From NCBI GenBank assembly GCA_965178125.1, contig OZ237748.1, forward strand, positions 124,001 to 188,000: 64,000 nucleotides of DNA, in the 5' to 3' direction. Source of the stretch: Bilabrum cf. latius (lineage: Eukaryota). The first letter of the stretch is position 1. Each line of letters opens with the position of its first letter. Made by a program: the position numbers and the translations under genes. Under the pieces are notes generated by a model. The model was not told the DNA's origin. It saw only the letters and a list, made by a program, of their open reading frames with translations, and searched no databases. Below are positions 5,096 through 64,000 of the stretch, one piece after another.

Positions 5096-5146
<51 letters not shown>

Positions 5147-11015: not shown

Positions 11016-14000
11016 TCAAGGACAGCCCAATGCAGCACCGGTGCCATGCAGCACATCCTCCGAGATGCCAGCGAGCAACTCATGCCGTCGCTTTCCGACG
11101 AATAGCGAGCACAGATGGGCCACCAGGCCCTTCCCTGGGTCGGGCAGCCGAGCTGCCTCATACCCCGGCACGGTTTTCTCCCAGGCAGCAGCCAGTAGAT
11201 TGGCCCCGGGACGGCCGTGCCAGAACACGACAGTTCCGTGGTCCCGCAGCACAGACACCGGTGCCACGTTCTCCTGTGCGCCCCCTTGCGGTTCCACAAC
11301 GCTGGTCAAGAAATCAGCAGGCAGCGTCGATCCCGTCATGAGTACCACGGCTGTGTAACCTCTGCGCAATGTCTCGGCGGCGGCCTTGGCGGCCAGCGCC
11401 AGCAGCTGCACGCGGCGAAGAATGTGAGTGGGTCCCGCGCCCCAGCCTTCGTCCTCTCTGGCCACACTCCGCTCACGTCGATCTCCGGGAACTCCATCCG
11501 CTCTGTTGGCGAGCCCGAGGTCGGCGTCGGCTGGCGCTGAAGCGGAAGGTGGCGGCACGCGGCCATCTTCGGCCCACGAAGGCACCAGGATATGGGGCAG
11601 GAAGTATGGCTCGATCCCGTGGGTGTCCCAGCAGTACTGGGCGTGGTCGAGCGTGGGTGAGAACACAGCCGGGATGCCCACCGCGCCTGCCGTCTCGAGC
11701 GCTGCACTCACGGATCCGAGGCTTTGGCGGTGAGCATCGGTGTCCTGGTCTTCGTCACCAATCACGGTAATGACGGCCGGGGATGTGGCGAGCGGCTGCT
11801 CTGTTGCATTGGCGGTGCCGTGCTTGCCTCCCACTTGCTCATCCGGATGCGATGCTTGCTGCAAGCCACCCGTTCGCTTCTCGCGTCGGTCGCCCGCAGC
11901 ACTGGGGTACACGGCTCGCAGGGCCAGGTACTCGTGCAGAGTTCGTGCAGCAGGGACTGCATCGAGCAAGGATTGCTCTGCGCGAGTTTGCGCTTCGCTG
12001 TTGACCCCAATGCCTCGAGATGCTGGCTTCTCGATCATGCCCCAGTCGCTCGCGGCGGATGGCTGCAGGAGCCGTGCATCGGGACGAATGCCCCGCTTGA
12101 TCGCGTGCAAGCGGCGGCAGAGCTCGCACGTACCTGCCTTGGTTTGGTCAAACTCGACAATTCCGTCGTTCGTCGTCTGCCGCGTCGAACCTTCCGCCCA
12201 GTTGGCGAACTCACCCTGCATGATGACTCCACCCACCGGCCTTCGCTTGCCTCGTCCTGCGCGGCTGGCGCCCTTCTCGTCGTCGACCGCGCTCTGGCCA
12301 GATAGACGCATCCTCCCACCGCGGGCTGTGGCTGGGGGCCGGCCCGCCCGCCAGGCCTAGAACCGCGCCATGCCGCTCTCCAGGTGGTGTTTCACGGATC
12401 GTACCGCTGCCTTGGCCGAGGAGAACCCGCTCAGGTCAATGAGCGCGAGGGGGTGCAGCGAAAGCTCCTGCCAGTCGGGCGCGCCGAGGTAGAGCGGCAC
12501 GGAATGCGCCAGCATGGGGTTGGTGGCCTTTTCCGAAAAGTAACCGTGGCACATGGTGTTCTCCATCGCCACCGTGAGCGGCCACGGCTCGAGCGCCTTG
12601 ACCCGCAGCTTGGCCGCGTCGGCATACGTCACCCCATTCCCAAGGATGAGCCCAGTACCGTACGCGTCGCGCCTGTTGTTCATGCAGGTTCCGATCGAGT
12701 CTACCCCAAGCCCTGCGTTTAAGAGCGCCTTGAGCGTCTTTTCTCGATTGGCGCGGCTCTCGCAGTTGCTCTGCATAAAGACGGCAGGTTGCTTGGGGCG
12801 GATGGACCGGATGTCTGCCAGAGCGCGCGCGAAACGGCCTGTGGGAGGACGGCTGTCCGACTTGTTGCGTCCTCCGGATTGGTCTGGACCTGGGAGACAA
12901 CTCACGCGCGGCGAGGGATTCTCGCGGCCGGCACGCAGCAGACCCCTCCGGAGAGACCCGAACTGAGGTTTTGGAAGCGCCCGCAGCGGCATGCTCCACC
13001 ATAGTACCGCGTCCTGCACAGCTTGATCCCACAATTCGGCAGTAAGGTTGCTGCCAGCGACCTGAGGCTGCGCGTGATCACCTGCGGATCGATCCAACTA
13101 GGTGCCGACCCTCAGAGCCAGCAAGGTGCCTTCGGCTGCAGCCTGGGCACCACCGGGCACCACCCCGCGCACAGGCTCACGAAACACCAGGCCGCTCCAA
13201 ACATGCGCGGCGAGCTGTGCCGGCCCCGGTCTGAAGTCGTGAGTGGCTATTTGATTGAGTCGGCGATCGAAGCCTGCAGACAGGTCCAAGAGCGGCTGCA
13301 GCCCGATCTCGCCAACAGGATAGTTCCCGCTTGATTCGCTGGTTGCCTTGAGGTACAAGAGCAGCGGCGGTTTCGTTTTACTGCCGTGGTACCGCTCCTT
13401 GGTCGCAATGAGGGCGCAAATCTTCCGAAAGGAGCTCGGGGGTTTGGCCGCCTGGCTGCGACGCGAGAGCCACTGCTGGCACTCGCTTGCGTCCCGGCGA
13501 GCAATCGATGCCGCTTGGATGCTTTGAACCCACTCCTGGGCATGGTCCTCAATAGCGAGCCATTCGTTGCTGGCCCCCGACCCTACAGCACGGCCGCGCT
13601 GGGAGTGCGCCTTCTGCTGCCAGGCTGCGTGCAGCTGGGCCCTGCGGCGATCCGCACGCAGCCAGGCCCACCGCCCAGTCTCGACCTTGCTCAAAAAATA
13701 CCCGGGCTGGAAAAAATCGGTTGTTTGCTTTGGCAGGCCGGATGCGGCCAGAAACGACCGCTACAGCATGCTATTGGACAGCTCCAAGGCTCCCCCCGGT
13801 CCGCCATCAACCATCGCCTCGTGCAGCTGCCCCGCATCGTAGGCCAGCTCGCACGATACCACATCGTCCTTGGAAAACTGTGGATGCGCGTCAGACCACG
13901 AGTCGTCGTACCAAGGGCACTGTAGAGTAGTGGAGCGTCTCTTTTGCGAACCGATCGCCTTCTTCGCTTCCGCCATAGACCAGCGGCTGATTTTGAGCAG

Positions 14001-14711
14001 GGCCAGATCGGCTGCCCCTCGCCCAACCGGGTCGGGCCCGAGCATCGACATGCACTTTGCACCGGTCTGTCCTTTCGGCAAGAAGAATATGGTCGCGCAG
14101 GCAACACGCCCCGTGGCGGGCTCGCACAGTCCCCTCGAGATCGCGACGGGGTCGCACATTGATTCCGCTAGCCCTTGCGCCACCAGCTAGCACCGAGCTA
14201 GATTCGGCCTGTCGCCCGCAGACTTGAGCGAGTCTGACAGCTTTCTGGTTGCCTAGAACATAGCCGCGCTGCAATCATCTGGGAATCGCAGGATAACTGG
14301 GCGGCCGCCGCTTGCATTGAGGCGGGCATGCTAGTAGCCTTGCAGTGCCTCGCGGGGGGGGAAACTGAGCCACCCGCGCATGGCATCCTAGACATGCCTC
14401 TCGCTGCCTTCCTTGGAGCAGAACTGTTCTTCAGCGGTATGTCCCAACCAGTCAACCGCATCCTATCTCCAGATCGGCATCGCCGGCAAATGACTCCCAC
14501 TCTGAGGAGCCCCGGATGTATTGCTATGCACTTGGTCCAGCTCATGCGGCATGACCAATCTGTGCGGTCGACTAGATGCCTGAAACCAGTAAGTCATGGC
14601 ACCCACTGTAAAAATGCTCGCAGAAACGAGTGCGCCAGAGCGAAGAAGGCACTTCGAACTGGCATGGCGTGCAGTTTCCCGCTCCTTCGTACACAGCTTG
14701 AACAGCTTCAT
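11016..14711 (-). CDS. Type II membrane glycosyltransferase with a GT10 alpha-1,3/4-fucosyltransferase domain (~1230 aa)
   Basis: One frame from MKLFK (14711) to TGA (11016), interrupted only by 8 TAGs (14463, 14388, 14331, 14253, 14187, 13761, 13098, 12357). N-terminal TM LLRSGALVSASIFTVGAMTYWF. GT10 motifs FMQSNC, VDSIGTC and VAMENTMCHGYFSEKATNPMLAHSVPLYLG. Confidence 0.8.
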
Positions 14712-15164
14712 CGAATGTGTTACCCAGAAGATAGGTAATTGAATGAGTATTGTACCTTGAACGAATACCAGACTGCAAAGCGAGATAGAAAGCAGCGAGC
14801 GAGTAGCAATGGCGCTATTGCATCGGTAGCCGCAGCGCAAACAAAAGTGACCGCCCTAGCAGGACCAGTTCAATCGCACCGAATTGTCTGAAATATATAC
14901 TCTTTTTGATGCCAGAGTGTACGCAAAAGTTACGCAATCTCCGGCCCTCTCCTGAACACAGAGATTGGATGCGCGTCATCGCTGGCAGTTCGTTGGCTCG
15001 GTCGCTACTGTGAATGTGCGACCAGGCCAACGGCAGGGCCGGCGCATCCGATCTATGCAGGTGTGCAGCCTTCGAGAGTATTGTGCATTTTCCCTTATTA
15101 TTATGAATTCCGTGTCTTACGAATTTCAACGGCTTTGTTTGCAGTAGGACTGTGAATGCAAGGA

Positions 15165-26071: not shown

Positions 26072-27757
26072 TCACTCATCCTAGGACTCGCCCACGTAAG
26101 CGGATACCTTCTTGAACATATTTTCCGAGTATCCCTTGACCGGAGACAACTTGTGACCAACCGAATGGTAACCAGTCACCCACATACGATAGAACGTGGC
26201 CTCCTGGCGCAGGTGAAGCGCATGGCCTAATACCTCAAGCACCCTTGCCGCGGGCCGCATGTAGGACGTGTCGATGCTCCACAGGTACGCCCCGCTGTCC
26301 ATGTCCACGAGAGCGAGATCTCCCGCGCGGTCGCACTCCTCCCCCGTGATGACGAGTGCACACTTCTGGGCCTTGCCCCCGGTTTCCGACTTCCACTTGG
26401 TAGATCCCAGTGATATCTTCTCTACCAAGTCGCAGTCGTCCTGCAACTCGAGGGTGCCTGGGAACATGTCATCCTCACGGATCGTCTGCCCCATGGCCAG
26501 CAACTCATCGCTCCACAGAGAGTTACCGCTGGCGGCAGGTCGCTTAGCGAGCGCCTTGGGGTCGCAACGACGTGGAGCCATCCCTTCGATGGCCACCTGC
26601 AGCGCCGCCGTCTTGCGACCGTTGCCAAAGGTCTTGTCGTCGCCGGGACTATTCAGGTCCGCCGACCCCGCAGACCACGCGATGTCGCCTCCCGGCTGGA
26701 GCAAGACGGCATTCCCGTCCCCCTGCAGACGAAGGACTTCCACACCCGGGTCCATCAGCGAGGAAGGCACCCGCCAGATGTACTGCCCCGAGGCGCTGTC
26801 CACGATGGCCAGGTCGCCCTTGGTGTCGCACCCTTCCCCCGTGATGACGAGTGCGCACTTGCCCTCGGTCCCTTTGCCCATCGTGTTGGTCGCATACCGC
26901 GCCTAGCCCCCTCGGTACACCACCAGGTTGCAGTCTCCCTGCATGCGCAGCTCGACCCCCTCCCCCTCGCCCGCCTTCAAGGCGGCCCCGGCACGCAGCA
27001 CCTGCCCCGGAGAGAGCACGTCGCCGTCGGTCACTTGCTGGTACGGCGATTGCAGGGCCTTTGCATCGCACTGCAGACTGTGCACGTCCTCCCGCACCTC
27101 CAGATCGAAGCGGAAGTGATCCGCGTTGGACGGCAAGTTTCCGGCGGTGTTGGTGCTCCACAGCCGGTGCCCCCCTTCCTGAAAGAGAACGACATTGCCG
27201 TCATCCTAAACCAGAAAGGTGTGCACCTCTGGTGTGAAGATAGAGGATTGTACCCGCCAGAGGTACTTGCCTGTGTCCGTGTCGATGATGGCCAGGTCTC
27301 CCTGCGTGCTGCACGATGCATCCGTCAAGAGAAGCGCGCAGTGGGTGGACCGCGTCTCCCGTGGCCCGCCCACGTCGATCTCATCCGAATGACCATTGGC
27401 TTTGACGACCAACTTGCAGGACGGGTTGACCCATATCGTTGTCTTATCCCAGTATAAGACATCGCGTTTACCGGAGGGGGTCTCGGAATGCAGGATTTCG
27501 CCTTTCCCGAGCCTGTCGCCCTTTGCCGGCTTCCTCGCTGCCAAGGCGCTGACATCGCAGGAGAAGGTGTCAAGTTTGTCACTGATCATACTTTTTACAT
27601 GGCTGCGACTATCGTGCCTACTGTTGCTGGCGTGGACCGAGACCGATGACATAGAGCCAGCGCTGCGAAGGTGCTGCTGGCCTTCTGCTCGTCGCCCGTG
27701 CACAGTGACCACCGAACAGGCGGCCAAAGCCAGCGAAATGGAAGCGATAGATTGCAT
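26072..27757 (-). CDS. Secreted protein with three bulb-type (B-lectin, mannose-binding-like) modules
   Basis: Signal-like MQSIASISLALAACSVVTVHG. Three repeats with CALVIT...GDLAIVD..SG.YLW. Motifs MQGDCNLVVY, LQGDGNAVLL and LQDDCDLV. In-frame TAGs at 27206, 26903 and 26081; ends in TGA at 26072. Confidence 0.85.
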
Positions 27758-44448: not shown

Positions 44449-45005
44449 TTAGTGCTCGTGGCTGTGGCGCCAATCGACCAGCTTCTTCATGTCCTCCTCG
44501 CTGACGTTGTACTTGCCCACGATGGACTGAAGCTCGGACAGCTCCTTGGCCTGGACGGCCTTGGCGGCGTCTGCGTCGCCGGTATCGGCCTGGTCCTTCA
44601 TCTTCTTGAGGATCTTGCGGAGGAGGCCCTCCTCCTGCTTGTTGAAGTACGCCTTCTGCGATTATTATAAACGTCATCAGATGGATATTCTACTTTGTTG
44701 TACCGGTCATACTGAGTAGCGATCATGCGCTCGTGGGAATGCTTCTGTTCTAGCTCGTGGCCCTGACAGCAACCTTATCTTCGTATAGCAGCAACCCTTG
44801 GTTGTACAGTACATTTAAACTGCTTGGAAAATACACCGCATGCCTGGTATGTACCATATATGGCTGCACGAACTAGCAATCTTACCTCCATCGCGCGCTC
44901 GCGGTCGTGCATGGAGACCATCGTTCGCGTGGCCGAGGCAACTGCAAACCTGGCACGAGGAATCACTGACCGAGAGCGAATGACAACTGCGCGAAACGCC
45001 TGCAT
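44449..45005 (-). CDS. Mitochondrial F1Fo-ATPase inhibitor (IF1)-like protein, 2 exons: 45005-44886 and 44655-44449
   Basis: Presequence MQAFRAVVIRSRS, then HDRERAME|KAYFNKQEEGLLRKILKKM...SIVGKYNVSEEDMKKLVDWRH. Intron is gtaag...cgcag. Ends in TAA. The ORF track misses exon 2. Confidence 0.75.
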
Positions 45006-46144: not shown

Positions 46145-49100
46145 ATGCCAAAGACCGGGGGAGGCATATCGACCATGACCCGCCTGACGTCACAGGGAGT
46201 CATGGACGCGAGCGGGTCATCATCGGACGGCGGCGGTGCTGGAGTCAACAGGGGCTTTGTGCAGAAGCAGGCAGGCAGCAGCGGAGGCACGGCGGACGCT
46301 GGCCTCGACACGATCAGGGGGGTGTTCCTGCCGTGCCTGCAGAACATCCTGGGGGTGCTGCTGTTCATCCGGTGAGGCGGTGGTGTGACGAGTGAATCGC
46401 CCGTCGCTCGGGTCGTCGGGTCGTCCGCTCCCCACGTCTCACGCCCCCTCATTTCAACGTAGATGATCCGTCCCCTTCTGACCTTAGCTGCACCCTCATA
46501 CTTGTTCCTTGCTTTTATAATTTCGCCACCAATTGTTTCCTTCCATGTTTTCTTATTTCGCCATCATATTTTTCCTTCTCAGGTTCGGCTGGGTCGCTGG
46601 ACAGGCGGGCGTGGTGCTAAGCTCCTTGATCATCGTGCTGTGCGTCAGCACCACTTTGCCCACCGCCCTGTCCATGACAGCGGTTGCAACCAACGGGAAG
46701 GTGGGCGGCGGAGGCGGGTACTTTATCGTATCCCGGAACATGGGCGCGGCGGCTGGGGGTGCCATCGGGTTTCTGTTCTATCTGGGCACCAGCGTGGCGG
46801 TGTGGTGAGTGTCTGGCCATTCCAGCCGATTCGTGCGATGCATGCGATCCGTGCGATGCACGCGATGCATGCGATGCACACCACAGCATCTTTACGCTGC
46901 ATTCATGCCCATCGACCACTCGTCATGCGATTCCGTCCAATGCTCATCACACCCATTACCACCCTCGCTCGTCACACCGCAGCATGTACACCCTGGGCGC
47001 CGTGGAGACGTTCCAGAAGGGCTTCGGGTTCGAAGACATGTTCCCATTCGACAGGCAGCTGATCGGGATCGGCGTGGTGCTGGTGCTGGCGTCCCTAGTT
47101 TACGTGGGCGTGGAAATGGTGAACCGAGTCGCTTCGCTGTTCTTGCTGGTGGTCATAGTGGCCATCGTGCTGGGGCTAGGGGGTCTGATCGCCTTCGCGG
47201 CTGGAAGCGACCACGGAGCCACTGGGGACGTGGGCAAAGCCGATGAAATCGCGGTCGGACCGGACTATTCCGAAGATCCCGACACTGGAATCACGCCCAC
47301 GTTCCAGCTGCTTGTGGGGATCGTATATCCGGCAACCACGGGCATCATGGCGGGTGCCAACAGGTCTGGCCTGCTGGCAGACCCGTCTGTTGCGATCCCC
47401 TACGGCACCATCGGTGCGATCGCCGTCACGTTCGTCATTTACATCGCCACACTCGTCATGTTTGGATCTCTCGTCGACCGGCAGACACTCCTGAGCAACA
47501 AGCTGGTCTTCGCATCGGTGGCATACCCCATCGACACCGTGGTGCAGGTTGGAATCCTCATGTCAAGCATCGGCGCAGGGCTGCAGTCGCTTGTGGGTGC
47601 CCCGCAGCTGCTGGCAGTGATGCTAAAGGATGACGTGCTTCCATTCGTGCACACGGGGAGACATCTCCTCCAGTGGTGCGGGGCCCATTGCTGCTGCCGT
47701 AGCTGCTGCTGTGGCGGAGGCGGAGGAGCTGGCGGTGTATTGGATAACGATTCCGAGTCTTCGGGCGGACCCCCCGGGGATGGATCAGGAGCCGCATCGG
47801 CGGCGGGCGGCGGCAGCCGCGAGGTGCCGGGGACTTCCGGCTCCGGATCACCGGACCAGACCACGGGGGCGTATGGCCTCCCAGTGCCCGCCAAGTCGAG
47901 ACCCTGCGTGGACGAAACCGCAGAGGAACGGGCCGAGCTGGTCCTTGCCCGGGCCAGGGCGCGCGCCCGGGCGCAGACAGAGGCCAAGGCCGCCGCCAGC
48001 ACTCGTCACACCGCCACGGTGATGACGGCGGCAGATGCAGCGGAGGAGGAGGACATGGATCGGACGGAGCTGGCCATCTCCAGGCCCGCTTCCTCGGATA
48101 GGCTCGTGGCGCAGGGAAACGCAAAGACCAGCACCAGCACCAGCACCAGTCGCAGGTCGATCAGAGAAACCGGAACTGTCCGCCGCACCCGCACGCCCAC
48201 CCCCACCCAGCACTCTGGGGGCGAGCCCTCGGAGGAGGAGCAGGCCGTCCTGGCCGCAGTGGAGGCAGAGGCAAACAAGGAGAGGGAGGGGGGCACGGCG
48301 GGCTTCACCGAGCTGGCCATCACCGCAGGAATCGCGGCGTGCTGCTGCCTCGCTGGAAACCTGGACGTGATCACCCCCATTCAGACCGAGTTTTTCCTCA
48401 TGTTCTACCTGAGCATCAACCTCGCCACTTTGGTGCTGACCCTGTACCCCACCCCCAACTGGCGGCCCACAACACCCGCCCACTGGGCCGTCAGTCTGCT
48501 TGGGGTGATCACGTGCTCGGTGGTCATGGCTCTGGTCTCCTGGTGGCAGGCACTTCTAGCGGCAGCGATGGCAACGGGCCTCTATTTCTGGATCTCGGCC
48601 GAGGACCAGTCCAGCGAATGGGGCGAATGGGGAAGCACCATGGACTCTGTGCTGCTGGGGAGGGCCCATTCCGCCCTGGTTGCGCTGCGAGACAAGAACT
48701 TCACTCCCAAGTCTTGGAGGCCGCAGCTGCTAATCCTTGCAGAGTCGGATGAGGGTGGTATCCCAAGGCGACCGGAGCTCCTGGAGCTCGGAGGTTAGTT
48801 GAGCAAAGGCAGAGGACTGACCATGTGCGCCACGGTGCAGAGAGGTCGCCTCCTGACCGTGCTGTCTCAGGAGAGGGACAGGTTGAGGGAGATGCGGCGG
48901 GCTGCCAAGGACAGGGCGGTGGAGAGAGCCCAGGAACTAGCAATGCAGAGGGGTGTGGTGCTCAGCGATTCCGCCATCGCCCGCGTGAGGACGAGTGCCG
49001 CGAGCCGGCTGGCTTTGCACGAGTACGATACTGCCATCGGGGCGAAGCAGCGACGGCTTGTAGCTGCCATGGAGGTGTGCGGCGTGTAGGGCGGGTTTGG

Positions 49101-50946: not shown

Positions 50947-51128
50947 TCATGTGTTTTGATGTTTTTTGTACACTTTTGGGTCTGTACAGTCGGTCCGCGG
51001 GAAAGAAGTAGGTAGATCTAGAGTGGCCGGATTTGTCTGCACACATTCAGCTCAAGCATTGCACACATCTTGCCACTTCCTCCGCTACAGCTCCAGCACC
51101 AGCGCACGTGACGGCTTCATCCACTCGT

Positions 51129-51575
51129 TCACACGGCCTCGGCCACCTGATGCTCTTCCTTCACATCGACCGCCTTGTCGTCCTTCTTGGCAATCCCTGC
51201 CTTGGTGTTCCTGCATAGAGCTATGAAGAAGTAGGCGGCTGCTCCCACCATGACGGCAATGACGACGACCAGCACCACTACCACGATGATGATGACTATG
51301 CTGCCCCCTCAGTCGTCGTCATCCTCGTCCGTAGAAGGAGCCACAGCCTCCTCCACTGGCAGGTCCTCTTCTTGTACAGTGACCTCCGCGGCAGTACTGG
51401 TGGTATCAACCGCCAGAAGCTGTGCTAGCTCGGCGGGTGCAGCCATCCTGAGCACCTCCACAAGCGTATCATCTTCGGACGTGGTCATATTGCCCCGCAG
51501 GAAGTCCAGGATGTCCTGCCTCGTCTGCTCCACGTCGGTGCGCTCCAGCGGAATAGTCACGGTGAAATCCAACGC
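51129..51575 (-). pseudogene. 3' fragment of a type I membrane protein resembling the C-terminus of the 58651-63628 protein
   Basis: DFTVTIP...EVTVQEE...DEDDDD(TGA 51309)GGSIVIIIVVVVLVVVIAVMVGAAAYFF...VAEAV(TGA). No convincing 5' part. Confidence 0.6.
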
Positions 51576-51576
51576 C

Positions 51577-51954
51577 GGCGCCTCGCACCTCAAGGCGGAT
51601 GGGGCTTGGTTGGCGGGCAGCATTTGGTCCGGGGCTACGCTCGACGGCGCTGACCTGAAGGGGGCAGATCTATCCGGAGCCGATTTCACCGGGGCCAGTC
51701 TGCGCGGCGCGACGCTGGACGGGGCTGATCTCAGCGGTTGCAACCTCGCGGGGGCGCAGCTGCAGGATGCATCGCTCGTGGGGGCGGACCTGACCGGTTG
51801 CAACCTCACGGGAGCGTCCGTCGTGGGCGCGGATGTTTCGGAGGCGGTGCTTGGAGCAGTTGGTGTGACGAGTGAGGCGGCCTTGGAGTGTGCGATCGGC
51901 CGGCAGCCTTCTTCCCATGCTAGCGCCGCCGGTGCCGCCGCTGGCAGAGCGTAA
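51577..51954 (+). CDS. Pentapeptide-repeat protein fragment, 5' end not evident
   Basis: A(D/N/T)LxG repeats: ATLDG ADLKG ADLSG ADFTG ASLRG ATLDG ADLSG CNLAG AQLQD ASLVG ADLTG. Ends in TAA. Confidence 0.7.
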   Translation, partial: GASHLKADGAWLAGSIWSGATLDGADLKGADLSGADFTGASLRGATLDGADLSGCNLAGAQLQDASLVGADLTGCNLTGASVVGADVSEAVLGAVGVTSEAALECAIGRQPSSHASAAGAAAGRA

Positions 51955-52303
51955 TTCCGCAAAACAAGCCAGGCGCTGCATTTAACGGATATCAGGCGAC
52001 ACAGGATGATAGTATGCGCGTACTTCATGGTGCCACTGACATTTGTCGGTAGAGCATTCAGGTCGGCATGGTGTTCTTGCTGATCGATTCTGATTTCGCT
52101 GGACGAAACTCAATTTCAATGGAATAACCTCCAAGCAGCTAGGCCACATTGGTAATCAAATACACGATCAATGTGTAATGGCCATGAATTTAACTTCGAA
52201 AAGTTCATTTTTGCAGCAGTTGCAGTTGGCCGATTGTTGCGAGCAGTCTTCGATATATTTCCATGTTCCTCTAGGATACAAATACACTCCAAATTTCAAC
52301 AGT

Positions 52304-55300
52304 ATGCCAGGGTCTGAGCGCAGCACAAAGCGTAGAAGACGGGCCCACGCCAGTCAAGATACCGTCACCGGTAGAGGTTCGGTTTCTTCTAAGGAAGAAC
52401 AGAGCAGCAAACCATCCAAAGTTGCAGCTGCAACTGAGCGAGCCACGCTGCCTTCAAAGGCTGACGAAGCATCTATTATGTCCGTTGACAGCAAGAACGG
52501 ATCAATATTGCAATCAATTCTCTGTGCACCATCACCCGCGAGCTGCATCGTGATTCGGAACATTTTGCCGCCAGTGTCTCCAGTGGTTCACATTGCTGCC
52601 ACGATCGACGGCAGACTTCTGGCAGCCGCGCGAGCAGACGGCACTATCGACATTTGGATTGCCTCTTCCAGCAAAGATATCATTGCTACCGGATTAGGAG
52701 ACCGCACAGCGGCAGCCATCGGAATGTCGAAGCGTCGCCGGAACAAGATGGTGATGGCTTAGTCGGCAGTTGGGACAGGCACCGATGGAGGAGACGACAC
52801 GGATGCGGGGGATGCAACCCCGACCAAGGAAACAAAACACGATACACAGCATACGGGGAGCCAGCGCCACAAGCTTAGCCGAACGCAGAGGAAAGCACTC
52901 GCGACCAACCACGCGCACGCCGCCGGCGCCGCGCGATGGAGGCCACTGCGGCGGGTGAGGGGCCCCGGTTCCGCAACCGTCCCAGGGTCCACAGCGCGAT
53001 GCATCGCGTGGGTGGAGAGCGGGCGCGCGGCGCCGGAAGGAGGTTCCGCAACCGGCGCGCATGCAGCGGTCCGGCCTGGCCAGAAGCGGCCCCGGTCGGA
53101 TTCTAACGGAACCGGCGCCGCGCAGTTCGAGCTGCCCACGAGCGAGCCGCCTGTTCTTGTGGCCGGGACACTGGCGGGAGAGCTCTGGGCGGTGGACTGG
53201 GGCGCTGGACTCCCGGGATCGGATCCGAGCTCTGCTAGCGTGTCCTACGCGGCGGCCGCCTCCTGCGTGTCCCTGGGCGGCTCCAGCGGAGGTGCGGTGT
53301 GGTGCATGGCGCCACGCATCGGTTCCGCAAAGGAGGGTATTCCGGGGCTGCTTGCGGTGGGTTGCGAAGACGGTGCCATGCGGGTGCACGCCTTGGAGAG
53401 TGTAGGTCCTTCGTCCTCGTACTCGGTGGCAGCGGGGCTTCGGGGGGACGGGGGTGCTGTAGGGGAGGGGGGGTAGCTTAGGCTGAGGCAGGTGGGCGCG
53501 GGAGCGTCCCGGGATGGTCGTGTGACGAGTGTCAGCTGGTTGGAGGAGAGTGGGTCAGTTTCTGGCTCCGGGTCCGATCCGATCGTCCTCTTCGCGGGTC
53601 ACGCGGGCGGCAGGGTCCGCGCGTGGGACGCGTCGCCGGCCGCGCGCGAGGCCGGTTCCGCTGCGGCGGCCGAAATGCGCGGCGCCGGTTCCGGTCCCGC
53701 CAAGGACCTAGCGTCGGAGGGGCGCCGCGGCGCGGTTCCGCTGCGGGAGGGCTGGAGCGCGGTTGCAACCTCGGGCGAGAAGGGCCGGCTGTCGGGAAGG
53801 GGCAAGGCCCGCAGGATGCAGGTGCAGGAGAGGAGGGGGGCGGAGCGACTCGGAGCCGCAAGTGGCGCCGCCGCGGTTGCGACCGGTGCTGCCCCCGTGA
53901 CGTGCCTTGCCGCCGCGGGCGGCGGATGGGCGGGTGCCGAGGGCGGGGTGGTGGCGTGCGGCGCGGGGGACGGGACTGTGACCCTGCTGGGAGCGCGATC
54001 AGGCCGTCTGGTTGGGCGGGTGCAGGCGCACGCGGAGGGCGCCGCCGTGTCTGGAATCTCGCGGGTTCCGCTGGAAATGCGCGGCGCCGCAGGGGTGCCG
54101 CCGAGCTTCGTGTCGGTTGGGATGGACGGTCGCGCCGCTGTGCTGCTGCGGTCGAGTGGGGTCACCTTATCATCATCATCGTCATCTTCATCGTCGTTGG
54201 GGCCTTGGAGGCTAGCGGGCAAGAGCGCCTCTGTATCATCGGATCTGACAAGTGTGACAAGTGCGGGGGCAACGGGAGTGCTAGCGGTGGGAACTGCGTC
54301 GGGTCGGGTGGCGGGGGGCGCCGCGCTTTCTCTCTCGTCCAGCGGAACCTTCTCCGACGTGTCCCCTTTGCCCACCCCCTGCGTCAGCTCGGTGGTGCTG
54401 CCCGATCCACCGGTGGATCCGACCGAGGCCCGGCGGCACGCCGGCTCTTCCTCTTCCACTTCTTCTTCTTCTTCCTCTTTTGCCCGGGTTGGAGGAGGCG
54501 CGTCGAACGCAGCGGTCCCGAGCCCCGTGTTTCTCCTGGCACCCTCGCCCCCCCCCCCCCCGCCGGGGGGACTCAAAGGAGCCAAGAAGGCGAAAGAGGG
54601 TAGCCTCGGCCTGTGGGTGGCAGGAGGTTCCGCAGGCGGCGCGGCGCCCCCAAGGCTGCTCTGCGCGCTGGGGCCGGCGGCCGGGGCGGCTCGCAGAGCA
54701 GGAGGACCCATCGATGCCGCGCTCGCCGGGGGGTGGCTAAAGTCGTCGGGATCCGGATCGGTGCGCGAGAAGGAGACGGCGAGTGGAGCGGACGGGTCCC
54801 CTGGCAGCGGAACCGCTTCCGGCGCCGCGCAATTGAAGCGGTCCATCGCGGCACTGCTGGTTAGGGAGGGAGGCGTGGCGGCGGTCGTTTGGGTCCTGGG
54901 CGGCGCCGCGCACGAGGTTCCGCAGGAGCTGCCCCGGCCCGTCGCTGCTGCGCCCAGCGCGGCCGTGCGGCGGCTTCTGGGCTGGGCTTCAGGAACGCTC
55001 GCACCCGAAGATGAAGACGAAGATGATGACTCGCAGGGTAGCGCGGAGTCGGGCGGCGGTGCCGATTTCGGCATGAGGGTGACTAGTGTGACGAGTGCCG
55101 AGCCCATGGTAGCTGGTGGGGGGCCGTGTTTCTGGGCGGTGGGCCGCGTGCGCGGCGCCGGCAGCCCGCCCGGTTCCGCAGGCCGAGCCTCTGTCGCTCT
55201 TCTGGAGGTCGCATCATCCGCCGACGCCGACCAGACGGATGCCGATGCGGAACCTCGTCTCAAGTTGCGCGGCGCCTGGTGCGATGACACCCCGACTGAC

Positions 55301-56110
55301 GCCACGAGCGGCTGGGCCAGGGCCTGGTCCGCCGCTTTGACCACCCCACAGGACCTGCCCCTGGCGGTGGGTAACCTGGGGGGTGGAACTGCGAGCAGTT
55401 CGGTCGCTGTCGTGGGGTCGGGAGCGGTTGGCTCGGCTGGGCTCGGGCGCGCGCTTGCAGTGGCCGTCGCTGGCAGAACGACCAATACCGGGCAAGGTGC
55501 TTCATCGCGCGGCAGTGCAGGCAAGACGAGGCTGCGCACGGGAGCGTTGGTTTCGACGGGCGGCGACGGCGGGTCGTCGGCATGCGCCGGGGCCGTTCTG
55601 CCGGCGCAAGGTGCATCGCACTGTGGCGTGGTGCTGCGATCCGGCGGGGACGCACTGACCCTGCCCTCTCTGGGCTCCATGGTCAAGTCCGGGTCCAGTG
55701 GTGCTGCGGCGGCCGCTGGACACTGGGCGCGGTGCGGTGTGACGAGTGCGGTGTTGCGCGCTGTGCGGAGCGGCTCGGACGGTTCTTGGCTGGGGGCAGG
55801 GGCAGGGGCAGGGGCAGGGGCTCCGTTGATTGCGTGGCAGGAGCGCGACAAGGTTGTGTGGGCGGGGGCGACTGGCACTGGCGGTGGCAGCAGCAGGGAA
55901 CAAGCGATCGGTGGGGCGGAGGAAGGGGGCGTCGGGTGGGTGGTTCGTGGGAGCACGCGGCCGTGGGGCGGGGCTGGGGTTGGCGGCGCCGCGCACGGAA
56001 AGCGGAACCATGCGGCAGGTGCTGTGGTGCTTGCCCTGGGGAGGCGAGCGGCGGGGGCAGCCGGCGGGAGCTCGGGGCCCACTGCAAGGGGAAAGGTGTT
56101 TGGGCTGTGA
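52304..56110 (+). CDS. UTP4: WD40 protein, UTP4/Cirhin-like (t-UTP, SSU processome), with large insertions
   Basis: LLAAARADGTIDIW, CIAW, GGAVWCMA, LAVGCEDGAMRV, GRVTSVSW, FAGHAGGRVRAWD, FVSVGMDG and C-terminal RPW...KVFGL. Three ORFs are joined through TAGs at 52760 and 53474. Ends in TGA. Confidence 0.65.
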
Positions 56111-58650
56111 ACGTGCAATTCAGGGTGTATGTTGCAAGGCAACACCTGAGGTTGTACTCTGGTGGTATGCGGAATTTCATCAACAAATGCCTGCAGTACT
56201 GGTAGGCCTATGTGCAGCTCCGGTTGCAGATCTGCCACCACCCGGCCATCCCCCGCCACCACTGCCACCACCCTTGGATCGAATGCCTCGGAAAAAGTCG
56301 AGCATGAAATGAACCTCGAATGCCCTCCATGCTGCCGAACGATCGCACTGGAAACCACAACGAGAAAGGTCGGCCTATTAATTGGCGGAGCTGGCTGCAG
56401 TTGAGGTCCGTCCTGGCTGCAGTTGAGGTTCATGGCTTCTATGGCCCTATTTTTCGGGGATGTTCCGCTTTTCGGTTAAAGAAAGTATTTAAGTGCGGAG
56501 GAACCATTATATGATGCGAGCTCGCGGACATACTACAAAGGGTAGCGGCCGAAATAGCTGACTGGGTGAATCTTGGTCCACCTGATGCACAACGTGTTTG
56601 GCTGGGATTCGAAGCCTATTGACCTTGTGCTGGCTGGTCATGACTTCAAAATGGATATCCATACTCACAAAAGTATATCCGGAGCACTGACCCGCCACTT
56701 CGCTCAGGTGCACCTTGAGAGATACCAGATGGAGCAAAGGTGCCGCTAGTTGGACACCTCCAAAGGATGTGCAGGTGCGGTGTATGGTTTTCCTCTAGAC
56801 ATATACAGGGCATTGCAGGACAAACAAAGGCACTTCTTAAGCTAATGAGGGGGGGGGGCGGGGCAGGCAAGGGGTAGGATAGGGGCGTGGCAATCGTCCT
56901 CAAATGAGATGCCTTCGCCCGTCCTGGCCTGGTGAGCAGGTTCGGCGAGGCGTCCCATCAGTTCACGATGCATAGACCTTGCTGGCCTCACCAACAGAGG
57001 CCAGGGACCCTCGACAAGGGCAGAGGCAAGGTAAACTGGACTGCAGCTCTACGAGAGGTACGCCAGGTTGGCTGTTATGTTTACTAGGCAGATGCAAGTG
57101 ATGCTGCTGCTGCCAGCAGTGCAGCTGTGGTGGGGGGCCATGTGGAGTCCGGCGGGCCCCGGGCTGCGACTGGACAGGTGAGCGGGGGCAGAGCCGGGGC
57201 CTCATTGACGTCCTCTTCATCTAGTGCTGCTAGAAGCATGTCCGTCCTCCATGGCCTGCGAGCGTCACGTAGTAGAACCATTGCATGTAATCGAGGGTAC
57301 TGGATTCGATAGAGGCGGACGCGGAGAGCAGCGGGGCGCTAGCTGGGCGGAATCGGGCTCGCCATGCCACTGGCAGTGGGGTCTGGCCAACCGGCCGGCG
57401 GTGAGCTCTCGATACAGACCGGCATCGTCTACATCGAGGAAGCAGTGGGATGAGCAAGCAAGTGGATTGCTACAAGGCTCTTGCACAGGTGCAGGGGACT
57501 GTTTTTGAGAAGGTCAGGGTGTTCGCCGAGGCTAGCAGTGCGCAAGAGGAGACCATCGGGGACCTCCTCAGCGCTGAGCAGGACCTAATACAGTCCCCAG
57601 AGCGCCCATCAAAGAAGAACAGGGTTTTGGAGTGTATCGAACTTAAGGACGCTGCTGCCAGATCGCATAAAACCTCGGCAGTCGCGGTTCTGGATATCCC
57701 CAGGCACACTGATGCGAAGATAGCAGCTCTCGGCCAGCGGCCAATATTGAAGGTTCCGACGGGTCCTGCCAGTGGAGACGGGCAGTGATTATATTTATAG
57801 TATATAAGTAAACTCTGAACAGATCAGATCACGGCGTTAGGCTAGGATTCAGCAGCACTAGAGCTGCAAAGTAGGGTGGAGGCATGGCAATTATGATGCA
57901 TGTGTTGTTTTGCCCGACCTACAGCAAAACCTACATAATGCTGGACATGTATCTTCACAGAATAGTAGATAAACTAAACATGCTTCTCCTCATTATTTTC
58001 TGGGGATGTATCGCTGGCCGCTTAATCAACCTAGCATATCTCAGCGCATCTGGATCGAAATTTTGCAACAAAGGCAACAAAATCAGCCAAAATGCAACGC
58101 CAACTACGATAGATTCTCTGAACGGCAGGGAATCGGCGATGCATGTTCTGTCAAATCGAGAGAAAGTTCGGCAACAGGTTCTAATCACTCACCACATTCA
58201 AAATCTGTATTTCTTCGCGCTTCCCCAGGCATTTCTCCTCACACGCGCCAAAGCAATCAAGAGCAAGAATGCGGCTGATAACGCGCGCCTTCGCACAATC
58301 GGTGTGTTACGGCGCATTTATCTCATGTGGCTTGATTTCGTGAGGTAATGGAAGGGTATTTGCTCTCTCGGGTCGTGACGTCGCGCTGGCTCCTTCCTCA
58401 CACTACTGTCTGCACGTCCATGGCGGTACATGATACCCCAAGTTACGAACCGTATGCTTTACCATGTGCATACAGTCTCCAATCAATGCTTTTTGGCGCC
58501 GTCCGGTGGCCGTCGTCCGTCTCGAAGAGTCCTCCTCCTCATCATTCGTCGTCGTTGTCGTCGTCGGAAGGGGAGAAGACCGCAGGATGGCACCTGCAGA
58601 ACCCGTCCACCCCTCGTCCTGTTAATTGTTTACTCTTTTAATCTCTGCAG

Positions 58651-61600
58651 TGGGGCGCAAGGCCAGGGTGGCGACCCGGTGGCCGAATTCAATGAAGACG
58701 GCCCGTTTGTCGATGCGTCGGGCGTCCCAACACACATCTCCACGTCAAATACGCCTGCAGATAGCGCGTATGAGCCTGCCCCGTATTTTTATCTTGGCCC
58801 TCCGGATGGGGATGGGAATGGGTATCCCATTACGGTAAACCCTGCCGCCTTCGAAGATGGGCGGCAAGTTCATGTTGAATTTCCAGGCTCATTGCTTGCG
58901 GGTTGGCGGTATGTTAGGGCTTCTTTTTCGATCCCACAGGGGCCTGAAACGTTCGATTCCAGTCAAGCCTTGGAAGGCCGATTACAACAACTATTCCTTG
59001 AACACGTTACCGAGTAGTACCCTAGTGAGTCGAGGCCATTCTGGCGTATCTTCCAGATCAAGGTCAGCGACGATGCCGACCGGTCGAACTTTCAAGTGGT
59101 TAACTTCAACGTGACCTTCTTGAGAGCCCCCGGGCCGACACTGAATACCAGCTAGGTCGCGCTTGACGTCCAGCACCCCACTGGTGGTGGTGCTCTGTCT
59201 TTCCTGTCGGGGCTGACGTGGAGTCTTCGTCCTGGATTCTGGACTCCATACACACTGCATATGTAGATTTTCGGCTCCTAGGAGGGGGACGAGATCGTGT
59301 TCCCGGATGGAGTGGGGCAAGACACACTCACGAGGAACGACACTGTGACCGTGTGGGACGCTTCGGCAACTACCTTTAAAAATAACATTCTCAATGTCTA
59401 GTTCAACGCAACCGGGAGGCAACCGGGCCGGCGCACGGTACAGATCACGATGACCGACAGGTATACAGGATAGTATGACAGCACTACCATCGCCATCTAG
59501 GTGGGTACGCTCAACGCCCCACCAGTCCTGGACACATCCGGCATGACGCTCCCGGTGGCCTACACGGAGGGCGCAGACGCAGTGGCCATCCTGACGGGAC
59601 TCAACGTCACGGACCCAGAGGGCCAGAACATGACCCTGGTGGTGAGCATCGACGAGCCGGAGGAGCAGGACGAGCTCGTGTGGACGGGGGGAACCGGCGA
59701 CGATGAGGCGCGTGTGCTGGCCTCGGACGGCCACACCTTCACATTCGGCCCGCAGTTCTCGCCCGAGCTAATCGCGGACGTGGGAAGCCTCTTGTTCCGG
59801 TCTGGCACGGAGGCCACATCGAAGACCATCACTCTCACGGCAACCGACTTCGCGGGGGGTGCAGTGACGCAGCAGATCACGGTGAGCATCACGAACACCA
59901 ACGACCCGCCCGTCCTGGACACTTCCGGCATGACGCTCCCGGTGGCCTACACGGAGGGCGCAGACGCAGTGGCCTTCCTGACGGGACTCGACATGGTGGA
60001 CATGGAGGGCGGCTCGGCCACCCTTGTGGTGAGCATCGACGACGCGGAGGAGCAGGACGAGCTCGTGTACACTGGCACCCTGGGTGATCACCGGGTCATG
60101 GGGGCGGACGGCCACACCTTCACATTCGGCCCGCAGGAGGACTCCATGGTGGAGGCCGACTTCGACAAGCTCCTGTTCCGGTCTGGCACGGAGAAGACCT
60201 CCAAGAACCTCACGCTCGTGTCCCGGGACGAGAACGACGGACTCGAGACACTGGTCACCATCACCATCCGCATCACGCCCGTCAACGACGGGCCGATCAT
60301 CGTCGTCCCCGAGGATATCAACTATTACAGGGAAGGGTCGCCGGCTATGCCGATCCTGTCGTCTGTCAACGTCACGGACCCCGACAGCGACGTGTCCATC
60401 AGCGTGACCATCAGCGGCTCCCACGCAGAAGAAGACGCGCTCTCGGCTGACACCGCACTCGTCACGCTGTCCGGGGACACGCACATGGCGATGGTCGCGG
60501 AGCAGGCGGCGGATGCGGCGCAGGCGGCGCTCCGGACGGTCGCGTTCAGCAGCGAGGCAGAGGACAGGCCCGCGGGCGGCCCCACTCGTCACATCCTCAT
60601 CAACGCCACGGACGCGGACGGAGCCGTGGCGAGCGCCGTGCTGAAGGTGTGGGTCATCCAAGTGAACGACGCCCCCGTCATCGATGCCGGCGCCGTGACG
60701 TCTCCGGTGGCCTACACGGAGGGCGCCACTGCGGCCCAGCTGCTGGCGGGCATCGCCCTGAGGGACCCCGACAGCGACGAGGTCTAGGCTGTGGTGAGCA
60801 TCAAGAACCCGCAGGCGGGGGACCGGCTGGAGTTCACGGGGACCGGTATCGCGCTCTCGGCGGACGACACGGTTGCGACCATCCAGAGAGGCGACATCTC
60901 CACGGTGGGGGCAGCACTCGAGGCCCTCAGCTTCTTCACGACGAGCGAGGTGTACGAGAACGGCCGCAGCATCGAGGTCAATGTGACAGACAGTGCGGGG
61001 GAGGGTAGCCTCACGTCCACCTTCATGCAGCGCGTGTCCATCACGCCTGTCAACGACGGCCACTCGATCCAGGCGGGAACCGCCCCTGCTGCAGTCACAG
61101 AGGGGCAGGACGCCCCCTTCCCGCTGCTATTTGACGGCGTCACCGTGACCGACCCCGAGGAGACCCGCAGCTACGACGTGCACGTGGCCATCCAGCAGCC
61201 CGTGGAGGGCGACGCCATCGTGTGGGCACCCACGGGCCAGGCCGGCGCGGGCATTTCCGTCGTGTCTGGTGGGCACTCCGCCACCAGCGACCCGGCCCAG
61301 CGCATCGCCACCGCCGACATCCCGGAGGTGCTGAGGGGGTTCCAGTTCAGGACAGACGCCGCCTACTCGGCCTCTCTGACCCGCACCGTCACGCTGACGC
61401 TCACGGACGCCGGTTTTGGGAGCGTGGCGGGCGTGTCGACGTCCCTCAACGTGAGCATCACCATCGTCCCGGCCAACCAGGCGCCCGAGATCGCCCTGCG
61501 GAACTCAACGGTCACATACGACGAGGGTGCGCACATGCCGCTGCAGCTGCTGGGGGGGGTGATGCTCACGGACGCGGACGACGTGCTGCTGGAAGCAACG

Positions 61601-63628
61601 GTGGAGCTGCAGGATCCCATGCAGGGAGACCATCTGGTGGACCTGACGGCGGGTGCGGGCGGCCTGATGCTGGGCCTGGACGGCCTGACCGCCATCACCG
61701 CCGGCCTGTCGCCGATGGACCTGCAGACGGCCCTGGAGGGACTCGCCTTCAACAACTCGGCCGCATTTATGACTCCGGGTGATCGCCACTTGAGCTTGGC
61801 GATCAAGGACACGGGCAGCCGCGGGCAGGTGGACGAAGACGACCAGGAGTCTGCCTCGGACAGCGTCACGATCGACGTGCTGCTGGACTACCAGCCGGTC
61901 GTCCTGGGGATCGATTCCGAGTCCGCGGTCTTCGTGGAGGGGCAGGACGGGCCCGCCGAGGTGTTCGAGGGGCTGCAGGTGCAGGCCCAGGACACGGGAC
62001 GCAACATCAGCGGGATGGTGACGATTGAGATGGCCAAGGCGGGAGACCAGCTGGTGGCTGCGGGGTCGGCGGACCCGGACGTGGCGGCACTCGTCACACT
62101 GAACGACGACGGAATCAACGCCACCATCGCCGAAGGTTCCCTGGCGCACGTCGCGGCGGCCCTGCAGACCCTCGGGTTCCGGTCTACCGCCGGCCAGGTC
62201 ATCCCCGTTGGCCCGAGGCGGGTGTTCGCCACGCTGCACGACGCGAGTCCCAGGGCAGTCGCCGTCAGCGGCGGTGCACCCGCGGTTGCAACCGTCGGCA
62301 GGGGCGTGGCCGTCGTGCACGTGAATCAGCCCCCGGCGCTGGAGGTGTCGCTTGCCTCTGCGCTTGATTCGTACACCCGCGGAGACGACGCAGTGGAGCT
62401 GGTGGGCCAGGGTGCCACGGTCACTCTCAGCGACCCCGACGACGAGTCCATGGCGAGGCTGGTGGTGCGAGTAGCCAGCGGGTGCAGGGCGGGCGAGGAC
62501 GAGCTGTCCCTGGGGGAGGGAGCGCCGGCATCGCTGGAGGGCACCTGGGTCGGGGAGTCGAGTGATGCTGCAATGCAGTGCACCCTCACCGTCGCTCCTT
62601 CCTCTGCTTCGGAGACCGCTCCAGTGGCGGACTGGATCGCGGCGATCCGATCCGTGATGTTCCGGTCTGCGCGCAGCCTCCAGGGCAGCAGCGTGGATGT
62701 ATCCGTTGAGTTCAACATCACGGACGCAGCGTCGATCGGGGATGTGGCGACCAACGGGGGACGGCAGTCAGCCTCTGTTCCTGCCCCGGGTGCCGACAGC
62801 CCCGTGGTGCTGACCGTGGTGCCCGTGCCAGCCCCGGAGGTGGAGCCCGTGCCGGAGGACAAGCCCGTCGAATGCGGCGGGGACGATCCCGAGGACCAGA
62901 CCTCCATCGCCTCCACCTCGATCCCCAACGGCCAGCCCGTGCTGAAGATCGACCTGTCGATCCAGTCCGAAGACGCGCTCAACTGCGAGGGAACCAAGGT
63001 GCTGTCCAAGGTCATCATCGACAAGGCGTTCGAGGCAGAGGGGGTAAAGAAGCCCCCCCAGGTCGCCGTGCTGACGAGGGGGAGGAGGAGGAGGGGCAGG
63101 GGCAGGGCGCTTACTTCACTGGTCTCAGGCGGAGCTGTCGGATCTGTGACCGCCTCTTCCGCAAGCCTTCGCGCCCTGCAAGAAGCGGATGCGACGGTGA
63201 TCTTCGAGACGGACATCACCATCATCGCGCCGGTGGAGGACGAGGAGGTTGCAACCGCCGCCCTCGAGCGCCTCGTTGCCGCCGACGGGGATGGGTCTCT
63301 CGATGCTGCCATCAGGGCCGAGCCCGCACTCGTCACACTCATCACGGGCGAGGTGGAGGTGGAGATCGAGGAAGAGACGTCGGCTGTGGGCAGCGCCCAG
63401 GAGATGCTCGGTCGGCCGGAGGACGACGAGAGTGGCCTCGGCCTCATCATCGGGGTCGTGGTGGGCGTGATCGTGCTGCTGGCGGTGGCGGCTGCAAGCT
63501 GGTGCTACTGCCGCCGCCAGCCGTCTGCTTCCGAGACCAAGAAGGATTCGGAGGGACTCTCAGAGATTGTTCCCGGGTCAAGCAAGCTGGGAGGCAAGGC
63601 CGGTGCATCAGGGGCCGAGGAGGTGTAA
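58651..63628 (+). CDS. Large type I membrane/cell-surface protein with tandem cadherin/Ig-like adhesin repeats; 5' exon upstream of the acceptor at 58650 uncertain
   Basis: Repeats N.PP.LD...YTEG..AV..L.G..VTDPD...EGD.L...L..L.F. TM GLIIGVVVGVIVLLAVAAASW. Eight in-frame TAGs (59015, 59153, 59264, 59279, 59399, 59471, 59498, 60785) and no TAA/TGA until the terminal TAA. Confidence 0.85.
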
Positions 63629-63752
63629 TGGGCGAGCAGTGGATAGGGTGCAGGTGGATCTGTTTGGGCGGAATAAACGGATCCATCATCTCATCGTGTC
63701 GCGGCGAGCAGCCGACGGCAGACGCGGGCATGTGTCGTGCGGATGGCCCGGA

Positions 63753-63880
63753 AATCGGTGGCAACAGAGTTTGACTCAGCCTTTTTGCCCGATTCGTGAT
63801 GGGTGTATCCGTATTAACTTGTAAGGGAAGGACCAGGAATCGGTGGCAACTGAGTTTGACTCAGCATTCTTGCCCGATCC
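63753..63880. repeat. Imperfect direct repeat of about 43 bp, 2 copies
   Basis: aatcggtggcaac(a/t)gagtttgactcagc(c/a)tt(t/c)ttgcccgat at ~63753 and ~63838. Confidence 0.75.
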
Positions 63881-64000
63881 ACTCTCGGTTGGTTCCAACG
63901 CCCGTTTGCTCACTTTGTAAATGTTACAAGAATCTAGATCTAACCAGGCATAAGTATAAATCCGCATCATGCGTGTGTCCTCTTCGACTCTGGCAAGCCC

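Follow-up and report, generated by a model that had tools for sequence, protein, structure and literature searches.

In-frame TAG codons, probably read as glutamine, in nuclear genes of a GC-rich eukaryote

Introduction

Nuclear reassignments of stop codons are rare, and genetic codes that separate UAG from UAA are rarer. Iotanema spirale (Fornicata) was the first organism in which UAG alone was found to encode glutamine while UAA and UGA still end translation (PMC5304391). The same assignment is described for Protocruzia tuzeti and two phyllopharyngean ciliate lineages (PMC11687900). Outside the ciliates, the splits between UAG and UAA in the surveyed papers are those of Iotanema (glutamine), one rhizarian (leucine) and Scotinosphaera (serine) (PMC5304391; PMC11687900). 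Codes in which UAA and UAG (UAR) are both read as glutamine occur in many ciliates, hexamitin diplomonads, some ulvophytes, oxymonads and the aphelid Amoeboaphelidium protococcarum (PMC5304391; PMC11687900). Here we analyzed a 64-kb stretch of DNA, referred to as the window (contig OZ237748.1, positions 124,001 to 188,000), in which a gene for a cadherin-like repeat protein carries a run of in-frame TAG codons. The protein is called the adhesin below, a label that its sequence makes reasonable but that is unproven.

In Iotanema, UAA is the stop of most genes (104 of 119), and about 41-44% of the conserved positions under UAG or under true glutamine codons are dominated by glutamine (PMC5304391). 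The mechanism predicted there combines a tRNA-Gln with anticodon CUA and a release factor eRF1 weakened for UAG (PMC5304391). Codes in which a stop codon is ambiguous and its meaning depends on position have also been described (PMC5304391; PMC4967479).

Results

A codon count of the adhesin frame over positions 58982-59500 (forward strand, 173 codons) returned seven TAG and no TAA or TGA, exactly as the first-pass annotation of this DNA had reported. The seven codons start at 59015, 59153, 59264, 59279, 59399, 59471 and 59498. When 58700-59800 was translated in the three forward frames, one frame gave a protein-like product broken by these TAGs and by no other stop. Mixed stops were found in the five other frames of the same segment, with TAA/TAG/TGA counts of 0/0/6 and 3/1/4 in the +1 and +2 frames and of 1/1/0, 0/4/1 and 3/3/7 on the minus strand. 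Over the whole window TGA is the most frequent stop triplet (761), at twice the count of TAG (379), followed by TAA (207). The off-frames of the 12 gene frames examined in the window hold 577 stop triplets (TAG 113, TAA 51, TGA 413). At this TAG share of 113/577, the chance that seven of seven stop triplets are TAG is about 1e-5 (0.196^7, our own arithmetic), and the run in the adhesin is thus not an effect of composition.

With TAG read through, no stop interrupts the adhesin frame between 58379 and a TAA at 63626. Exon 1 (58269..58339, forward strand) begins with an ATG at 58269 that is in phase with exon 2 and is followed by a hydrophobic, signal-peptide-like stretch (MRLITRAFAQSVCYGAFISCGLI); the splice joint leaves this exon at 58339. 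A spliceosomal GT..AG intron of 311 nt (58340..58650, forward strand) separates it from exon 2 (58651..63628, forward strand), which holds eight in-frame TAG and ends with the TAA at 63626. The GC content of third codon positions (GC3) falls from 0.75 to 0.54 after this TAA, as expected for an untranslated region (UTR). In the product, predicted at about 1,682 residues, a signal peptide and an N-terminal region precede about nine repeats, which are followed by a transmembrane helix and a short tail. The repeats are cadherin/Ig-like, span about 130 residues each and end in N-D-x-P. The cluster of seven TAG (59015..59500, forward strand) falls in the first repeat, which is degenerate, and in the region preceding it. 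Six of the seven fall within residues 160-287, a segment that aligned as a degenerate copy of the repeat when the protein was compared with itself, with the frame kept throughout. The eighth TAG (60785..60787, forward strand) was placed within repeat 4 by the reading frame and the repeat alignment.

Homologs of the adhesin are few and are long, bacterial-type proteins with Ig/cadherin-like repeats. The Pfam family Cadherin_4 (PF17803) matched at 20.8 bits, below its cut-off of 25.1. A search with the N-terminus returned a single match (P0001, 30% identity) carrying PF17963 and PF17803, and a second set of nine representatives at E<=1e-3 matched residues 208-352 only. Residues 1-207 are covered by none of the homologs, which leaves the TAG residues 122, 168 and 205 essentially without a homolog column. 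A single-sequence AlphaFold2 model of residues 1-293 was unusable (mean predicted local distance difference test score, pLDDT, 33.7).

Transcription of the adhesin was assessed by comparing four of eight sequencing runs (X1, X2, X4 and X5), as contigs, over positions 44001-64000. Runs X1, X4 and X5 belong to two studies, and X2 brings the total to three. GT..AG joints were present in X1, X4 and X5 at 46370>46582 and 46803>46982 in a gene for an SLC12 cation-chloride cotransporter and at 58339>58651 in the adhesin, the last at a depth of 517.7 in X1 and 77 in X4. Depth in these three runs was 1-5 over the intergenic DNA at 56007-58007, and that of X1 reached 519-774 on the adhesin, so that RNA-like depth on the TAG stretch exceeded that of the adjoining intergenic DNA more than 100-fold. 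Run X2 was evenly covered, at a depth of about 14-31 on the adhesin and to either side of it and with a few higher bins elsewhere. It had no short GT..AG joints and was contiguous through the introns, that of the adhesin included (a record spanning 57843-59566). From the joints and the depth together we infer that X1, X4 and X5 are RNA and that X2 is DNA.

The RNA-like contigs over 58651-59566 and 46982-50035 have no gaps and no other letters relative to the DNA, and no differing letters between the runs and the DNA were listed for 57837-64000. Nine in-frame TAG (seven in the adhesin and two in the SLC12 gene) are thereby unchanged in spliced RNA-like contigs, and the adhesin splice joint, observed in the same runs, lies about 360 bases upstream of the cluster. 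Coverage of exon 2 continues over 60107-63946; the break at 59566/60107 also appears in the DNA run and falls where repeats 1 and 2 are nearly identical, which identifies it as an assembly break and not a joint. RNA continuity had been named in the first-pass annotation as a test, and contigs from three runs of two studies span the cluster without a joint or a changed letter. The TAG stretch of the adhesin is neither an intron, nor untranscribed, nor edited, and its TAGs are present in the mature RNA.

The window is eukaryotic nuclear DNA with about 62% GC and long genes. These include genes for a kinesin, the SLC12 cotransporter, a protein kinase with armadillo (ARM) repeats, a GT10 fucosyltransferase, a B-lectin, an actin-related protein, a mitochondrial-type acyl-CoA dehydrogenase (ACAD), a cyclophilin and an EF-hand protein. 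In-frame stop triplets were counted in open reading frames (ORFs) delimited by TAA and TGA. The 12 gene frames (13,331 codons) contain 35 in-frame TAG, at least one in 10 of the 12, and no TAA or TGA; the zero is informative only for genes whose two ends are set by homology, a signal peptide or RNA, namely the SLC12, adhesin, lectin and kinase-ARM genes. Only TAG interrupts the verified coding frames. Homology to human KCC proteins lies on both sides of each TAG in the SLC12 frame, kinase and ARM domains flank two in-frame TAG, and lectin domains stand on both sides of the TAGs of the B-lectin gene. The kinesin gene is likewise among those that carry TAG. Two TAG upstream of the lectin start (27967 and 27901) were left out as probable 5' UTR.

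A second cluster had been noted in the fucosyltransferase, and the count of five TAG with no TAA or TGA was reproduced in the minus-strand frame of 14187..14465, which spans 93 codons of the stem region. The gene itself (11016..14714, minus strand) was recognized from sequence alone as GT10 fucosyltransferase-like (PF00852, 3.5e-11); it encodes an N-terminal membrane anchor, contains eight in-frame TAG and ends with TGA. The first-pass annotation had tied the pattern to this gene and the adhesin. Both cases are real, but the pattern extends to the 10 frames counted above, which supports the view that the reading of TAG as sense is a window-wide property.

The lengthening of ORFs was dropped as a line of evidence, since reading through TGA lengthens ORFs in this GC-rich DNA even more than reading through TAG. 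Also left out of all counts was the ORF at 37315-38496 (minus strand), which has 394 codons, is open but for six TAG and has no family match. Its GC content is flat across codon positions, like that of intergenic DNA, and it is either a chance ORF or a very unusual gene.

Information on the amino acid inserted at TAG came mainly from two sites. The SLC12 gene has an in-frame TAG at 48796..48798 (forward strand), within the contiguous X1 contig 46982-50035, at a position that is glutamine in human KCC3 (LELGG(TAG)LSKGRGL here, FASQLKAGKGL in KCC3). This column holds glutamine in seven of nine SLC12 homologs and tryptophan in the two most distant ones. The other site lies in the lectin gene (26075-27757, minus strand), which encodes a secreted protein with three bulb-type (B-lectin) domains. 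Its TAG at 27206..27208 (minus strand) occupies the glutamine of the bulb-lectin motif QxDxNxVxY and reads LV(TAG)DDGNVVLF against the paralogous LRMQGDCNLVVY, LRLQGDGNAVLL and LELQDDCDLV. Two copies in the same protein keep the full Q-x-D-x-N-x-V with CAG for glutamine, and the third has TAG at that residue; in a fourth, partial copy (LELQDDCDLV), D replaces the N. The motif glutamine is encoded by CAG in the three paralogous copies. Gastrodianin (ilQrdrnvviy) also aligns a glutamine at TAG 27208, but in a weak third domain.

Other sites were less informative. Among 54 domain alignments from 10 homologs, glutamine was the commonest residue of adhesin column 210 (6 of 10) and ranked second or third in columns 250, 274 and 283. 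A crude sum of BLOSUM62 scores over 10 sites, which are few, favored glutamine (14.5) over glutamate (9.7), lysine (3.7), serine (2.0) and threonine (1.6). The kinase TAG sites fall in poorly aligned regions, and searches of PDB sequences with the kinesin gave no matches, leaving the TAG in its SSRGH...VDLAGAE region, at a position where glutamine may be frequent, unscored. In view of the level of glutamine dominance in Iotanema, some misses at TAG sites are to be expected. The two peptide comparisons quoted in the first-pass annotation are present in the sequence, but their TAGs stand in variable columns and the comparisons alone do not fix the amino acid. Altogether, glutamine is the likely amino acid at TAG, although this is not proven.

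The assignment of the remaining stops was examined in 15 read-through ORFs, 13 of which end with TGA, two with TAA and, by construction, none with TAG. The SLC12 frame ends with a TGA exactly at the conserved C-terminus and is the sole gene with an end set by homology. These genes stop mainly at UGA. The 12 gene frames use 369 CAG, 89 CAA and 35 TAG codons, and from these counts about eight in-frame TAA would be predicted if TAA also encoded glutamine; none was observed. No verified gene was lengthened by reading through TAA. UAA is probably still a stop, as judged from two TAA-ended ORFs in a 64-kb sample.

The distribution of TAG within genes is uneven. Seven of the eight adhesin TAG lie among 13 of its 69 glutamine-type codons (P=1e-4, permutation within glutamine-type codons), and five of the eight fucosyltransferase TAG lie within 93 codons (P=0.009, permutation). 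Both clusters come just after a signal peptide or membrane anchor. In the adhesin, GC3 is 0.52-0.72 in the first 900 nt and 0.76-0.90 downstream, and eight of its 10 CAA codons are in the first 900 nt. Gene conversion between repeats may have driven CAG in them, with the unique 5' part escaping it. As a cause of clustering, GC3 was rejected on the basis of the 12 genes, across which its Spearman correlation was -0.01 with the TAG count and -0.27 with CAA. Additionally, C precedes 18 of the 35 in-frame TAG (background 0.34, P=0.024; 0.24 before CAG). A TAG preceded by C forms the palindrome CTAG, and antisense frames consequently also show runs of TAG only, for example the five TAG in a forward-strand frame of 14187-14465.

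Indices of repeat-induced point mutation (RIP) are commonly taken as positive at TpA/ApT above 0.89 and (CpA+TpG)/(ApC+GpT) below 1.03. The adhesin cluster gave 1.09 and 0.84, the seven TAGs themselves inflating TpA, and the fucosyltransferase cluster gave 0.77 and 2.0, outside both thresholds. The TGG codons inside the adhesin cluster are intact.

Several repeats and inserts were recorded alongside these results. The 10-mer GTGACGAGTG, usually found after GGT, has 57 copies in the window at no more than one mismatch (4.8 expected from shuffles), 40 of them exact. It occurs on both strands with unconserved flanks, for example at 33452, 33479, 33554, 50023, 50230, 50257 and 55088. Copies inside genes read G-V-T-S-(A/G), are part of Gly/Ala/Ser-rich inserts and persist in RNA-like contigs, and the SLC12 intron contains one copy. 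The 10-mer was absent from all eight metagenome ACAD loci inspected, and literature searches for it returned primers only. Long low-complexity inserts rich in Ala, Gly, Ser and Cys interrupt conserved domains at 47668-48313 and in parts of 32342-36901 and 52094-56110. The spliced RNA-like contig 46982-50035 still contains the insert of the SLC12 gene, and the Cafeteria homolog carries one at the corresponding position. In-frame tandem repeats were seen at 28191-28656, 9900-10010, about 4700-5300 (minus strand) and 8900-9400. Their units include a 39-nt unit read as AELDDATSVHSST in about nine copies, the in-frame units GSAVEGARPVTR and SLDPLAWWVDRLQV, and a unit of about 20 residues, MEAGSSASGQVPMGAAAAA, within the large ORF 1-6219. 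A scan of the 64-kb window against Rfam gave no match. ARAGORN reported a 91-nt tRNA-Gly(TCC) at 4032-4122 (forward strand) inside a large minus-strand ORF; it has no Rfam match and is probably a false positive.

Discussion

The pattern described above probably reflects a nuclear reassignment of UAG to glutamine, with UGA and UAA kept as stops, in a GC-rich eukaryote. Cytoplasmic ribosomes would read UAG as sense, most likely as glutamine, and would stop mainly at UGA and probably at UAA too. The TAGs at 59015-59498 would then be ordinary codons, rather than damage, of an intact, spliced and strongly expressed gene, whose product is predicted to be a secreted, membrane-anchored protein with cadherin-like repeats. 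By analogy with other UAG-decoding eukaryotes, a tRNA-Gln(CUA), differing by a single base from tRNA-Gln(CUG), would read UAG and not UAA, and eRF1 would have a weakened recognition of UAG. The proposal of the first-pass annotation that TAG is translated as glutamine and is not a sign of decay gained support from the RNA continuity and from independent genes with TAG at a conserved glutamine. Its choice of amino acid is backed by the two strongly conserved sites, with one site, in the EF-hand protein, pointing elsewhere.

A number of observations weigh against this interpretation. Glutamine is strongly conserved at only two TAG sites, and seven others are variable; threonine or serine leads adhesin columns 250, 274 and 283, calmodulins have Thr/Ser at the position of the EF-hand TAG (43179-43181), and the sites 49087, 26905 and 41676 are variable or charged. 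The absence of in-frame TAA and TGA is partly built in by the way in which the ORFs were delimited. The RNA status of X1, X4 and X5 comes from joints and depth, the automatic labels reading only 'RNA?' and, for X1, 'probably DNA'; none of the eight runs is registered as RNA. A tRNA scan found no tRNA with anticodon CUA within the 64-kb window. The lectin, kinesin and 32342-36901 ORFs have TAG 2-103 codons before their TGA. Finally, the metagenome relatives of the ACAD in L002 (74%) and L003 (78%) show no pattern of TAG read-through.

The TAGs close to gene ends are what would be seen if the codon had a dual, position-dependent meaning, sense inside genes and stop near the 3' end, as in Condylostoma or Blastocrithidia. 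They precede the TGA by two codons in the lectin, by 11 in the kinesin and by 103 and two in the ORF at 32342-36901. However, no gene end is fixed at a TAG, the one end fixed by homology (SLC12) is a TGA, and the closing codons of the 15 ORFs are the 13 TGA and two TAA. A dual meaning appears unlikely in this small sample. That UAG is sense for a residue other than glutamine, whether Glu, Ser/Thr, Leu or another, appears rather improbable as well. Such a code would account for the Thr/Ser at the EF-hand site and in the three adhesin columns, glutamate is the runner-up in the BLOSUM62 sum, and precedents exist in UAG=Ser of Scotinosphaera and UAG=Leu of the rhizarian exLh (PMC11687900). Set against these points, glutamine occupies both of the most conserved sites (48796 and 27208), its summed score of 14.5 compares with 9.7 for E, 2.0 for S and 1.6 for T, and columns rich in T and S are typical of beta-sandwich repeats regardless of the residue in the query.

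Explanations that deny the TAGs a role in translation fare far worse. Their removal or alteration beforehand, by an unrecognized intron or by U-to-C RNA editing, is suggested only by prior possibility and by the fact that contigs can drop rare variants. Contigs with true splicing nearby span 58651-59566 without gaps or other letters, and domain homology continues in frame through every TAG, which makes this explanation highly improbable. We consider it just as hard to credit that the TAGs arose as nonsense mutations in pseudogenes, decaying or restricted to one strain, perhaps through local, RIP-like C-to-T hypermutation of CAG. The RIP-like indices of the adhesin cluster, which differ from those of its flanks, together with the lower GC and tight bunching of the clusters, would fit such a process. 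Yet frameshifts, TAA and TGA are all absent, and the frame is kept through all repeats; conserved genes (SLC12 and the kinase) are affected; few loci in the RNA-like runs are covered as deeply as the adhesin; and the DNA and RNA runs of three studies are identical letter for letter. As for RIP itself, the fucosyltransferase cluster lacks the signature and the adhesin cluster retains its TGG codons.

The placement of the organism is uncertain. The nearest named SLC12 homolog belongs to the bicosoecid stramenopile Cafeteria (43% identity, with the insertion at the same place). For the ACAD, the closest named homologs come from early-diverging fungi (at most 70% identity), with unnamed sequences at 74-78%, and on this account the organism may be a relative of the aphelids. 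Both sets of named homologs are distant. The exact ACAD was absent from a collection of 5.8 billion protein clusters, and a Protein Atlas search with it gave generic ACAD clusters only, with no lineage signal. Among 79 metagenome ACAD loci, eight were inspected (L002-L005, L008, L012, L013 and L073), L002 and L003 being the closest with flanks; they say nothing firm on how far the code extends. A possible clue to green algae from a TGTAA poly(A) signal was dropped, as TGTAA was found only after the adhesin gene.

With the UAG-to-glutamine reading as a basis, we put forward, tentatively and at somewhat less than even confidence, that the window records an independent and unreported origin of a UAG-only glutamine code in a GC-rich, aerobic, non-ciliate eukaryote, and that the N-terminal bunching of UAG in secreted and membrane proteins may mark a local mutational regime or a device for translational pausing. 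The organism may instead belong to a lineage with a known code, such as a relative of the UAR=Gln aphelids, or its code may already have been described by the authors of the genome. If the proposal is true, genomic DNA makes the changes in tRNA-Gln(CUA) and eRF1, which could not be examined in Iotanema, directly testable. A further lineage with an assembly and abundant RNA data would make visible how tRNA and release factor changed as UAG and UAA came to differ in meaning, and would add a data point on the recurrence of the same code. In practical terms, annotation with the standard code would truncate or split a large share of the genes, as at least one TAG is held by 10 of the 12 frames.

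In comparison with known systems, the literature searched held no report of a UAG-only glutamine code in a GC-rich non-ciliate other than Iotanema. Iotanema spirale resembles the present case in that only UAG is reassigned and UAA is retained as a stop. In Iotanema UAG also stands at conserved glutamine positions, of which two strong ones are occupied here, and does not end genes, which for the ORFs here follows from how they were delimited. It differs in its preference for UAA as the stop, TGA ending 13 of 15 ORFs here, as expected at about 62% GC. Iotanema is also an anaerobic gut flagellate known from its transcriptome, whereas the window is GC-rich genomic DNA with a gene for an acyl-CoA dehydrogenase of mitochondrial type; nothing in the sequence points to kinship between the two. 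The UAG-only codes of ciliates are formally the same as the one proposed here and correspond to NCBI's disused table 15 (TAG=Q), but the long GC-rich genes, the contig of at least 64 kb, the ordinary GT..AG introns and the Cafeteria affinity of the SLC12 gene do not have a ciliate look. The UAR=Gln codes (NCBI table 6) share the reading of UAG as glutamine, presumably through tRNA-Gln(CUA). They are set apart by the lack of in-frame TAA in 13,331 codons, against about eight expected, and by the two TAA-ended ORFs, with the reservation that TAA is rare anyway in a GC-rich genome and that 64 kb is a small sample against this class. Amber-recoded phages (PMC9523058) reportedly also read TAG as glutamine and concentrate recoded codons in some genes; their recoding concerns late genes of phage genomes, whereas the TAGs described here lie in spliced eukaryotic nuclear DNA.

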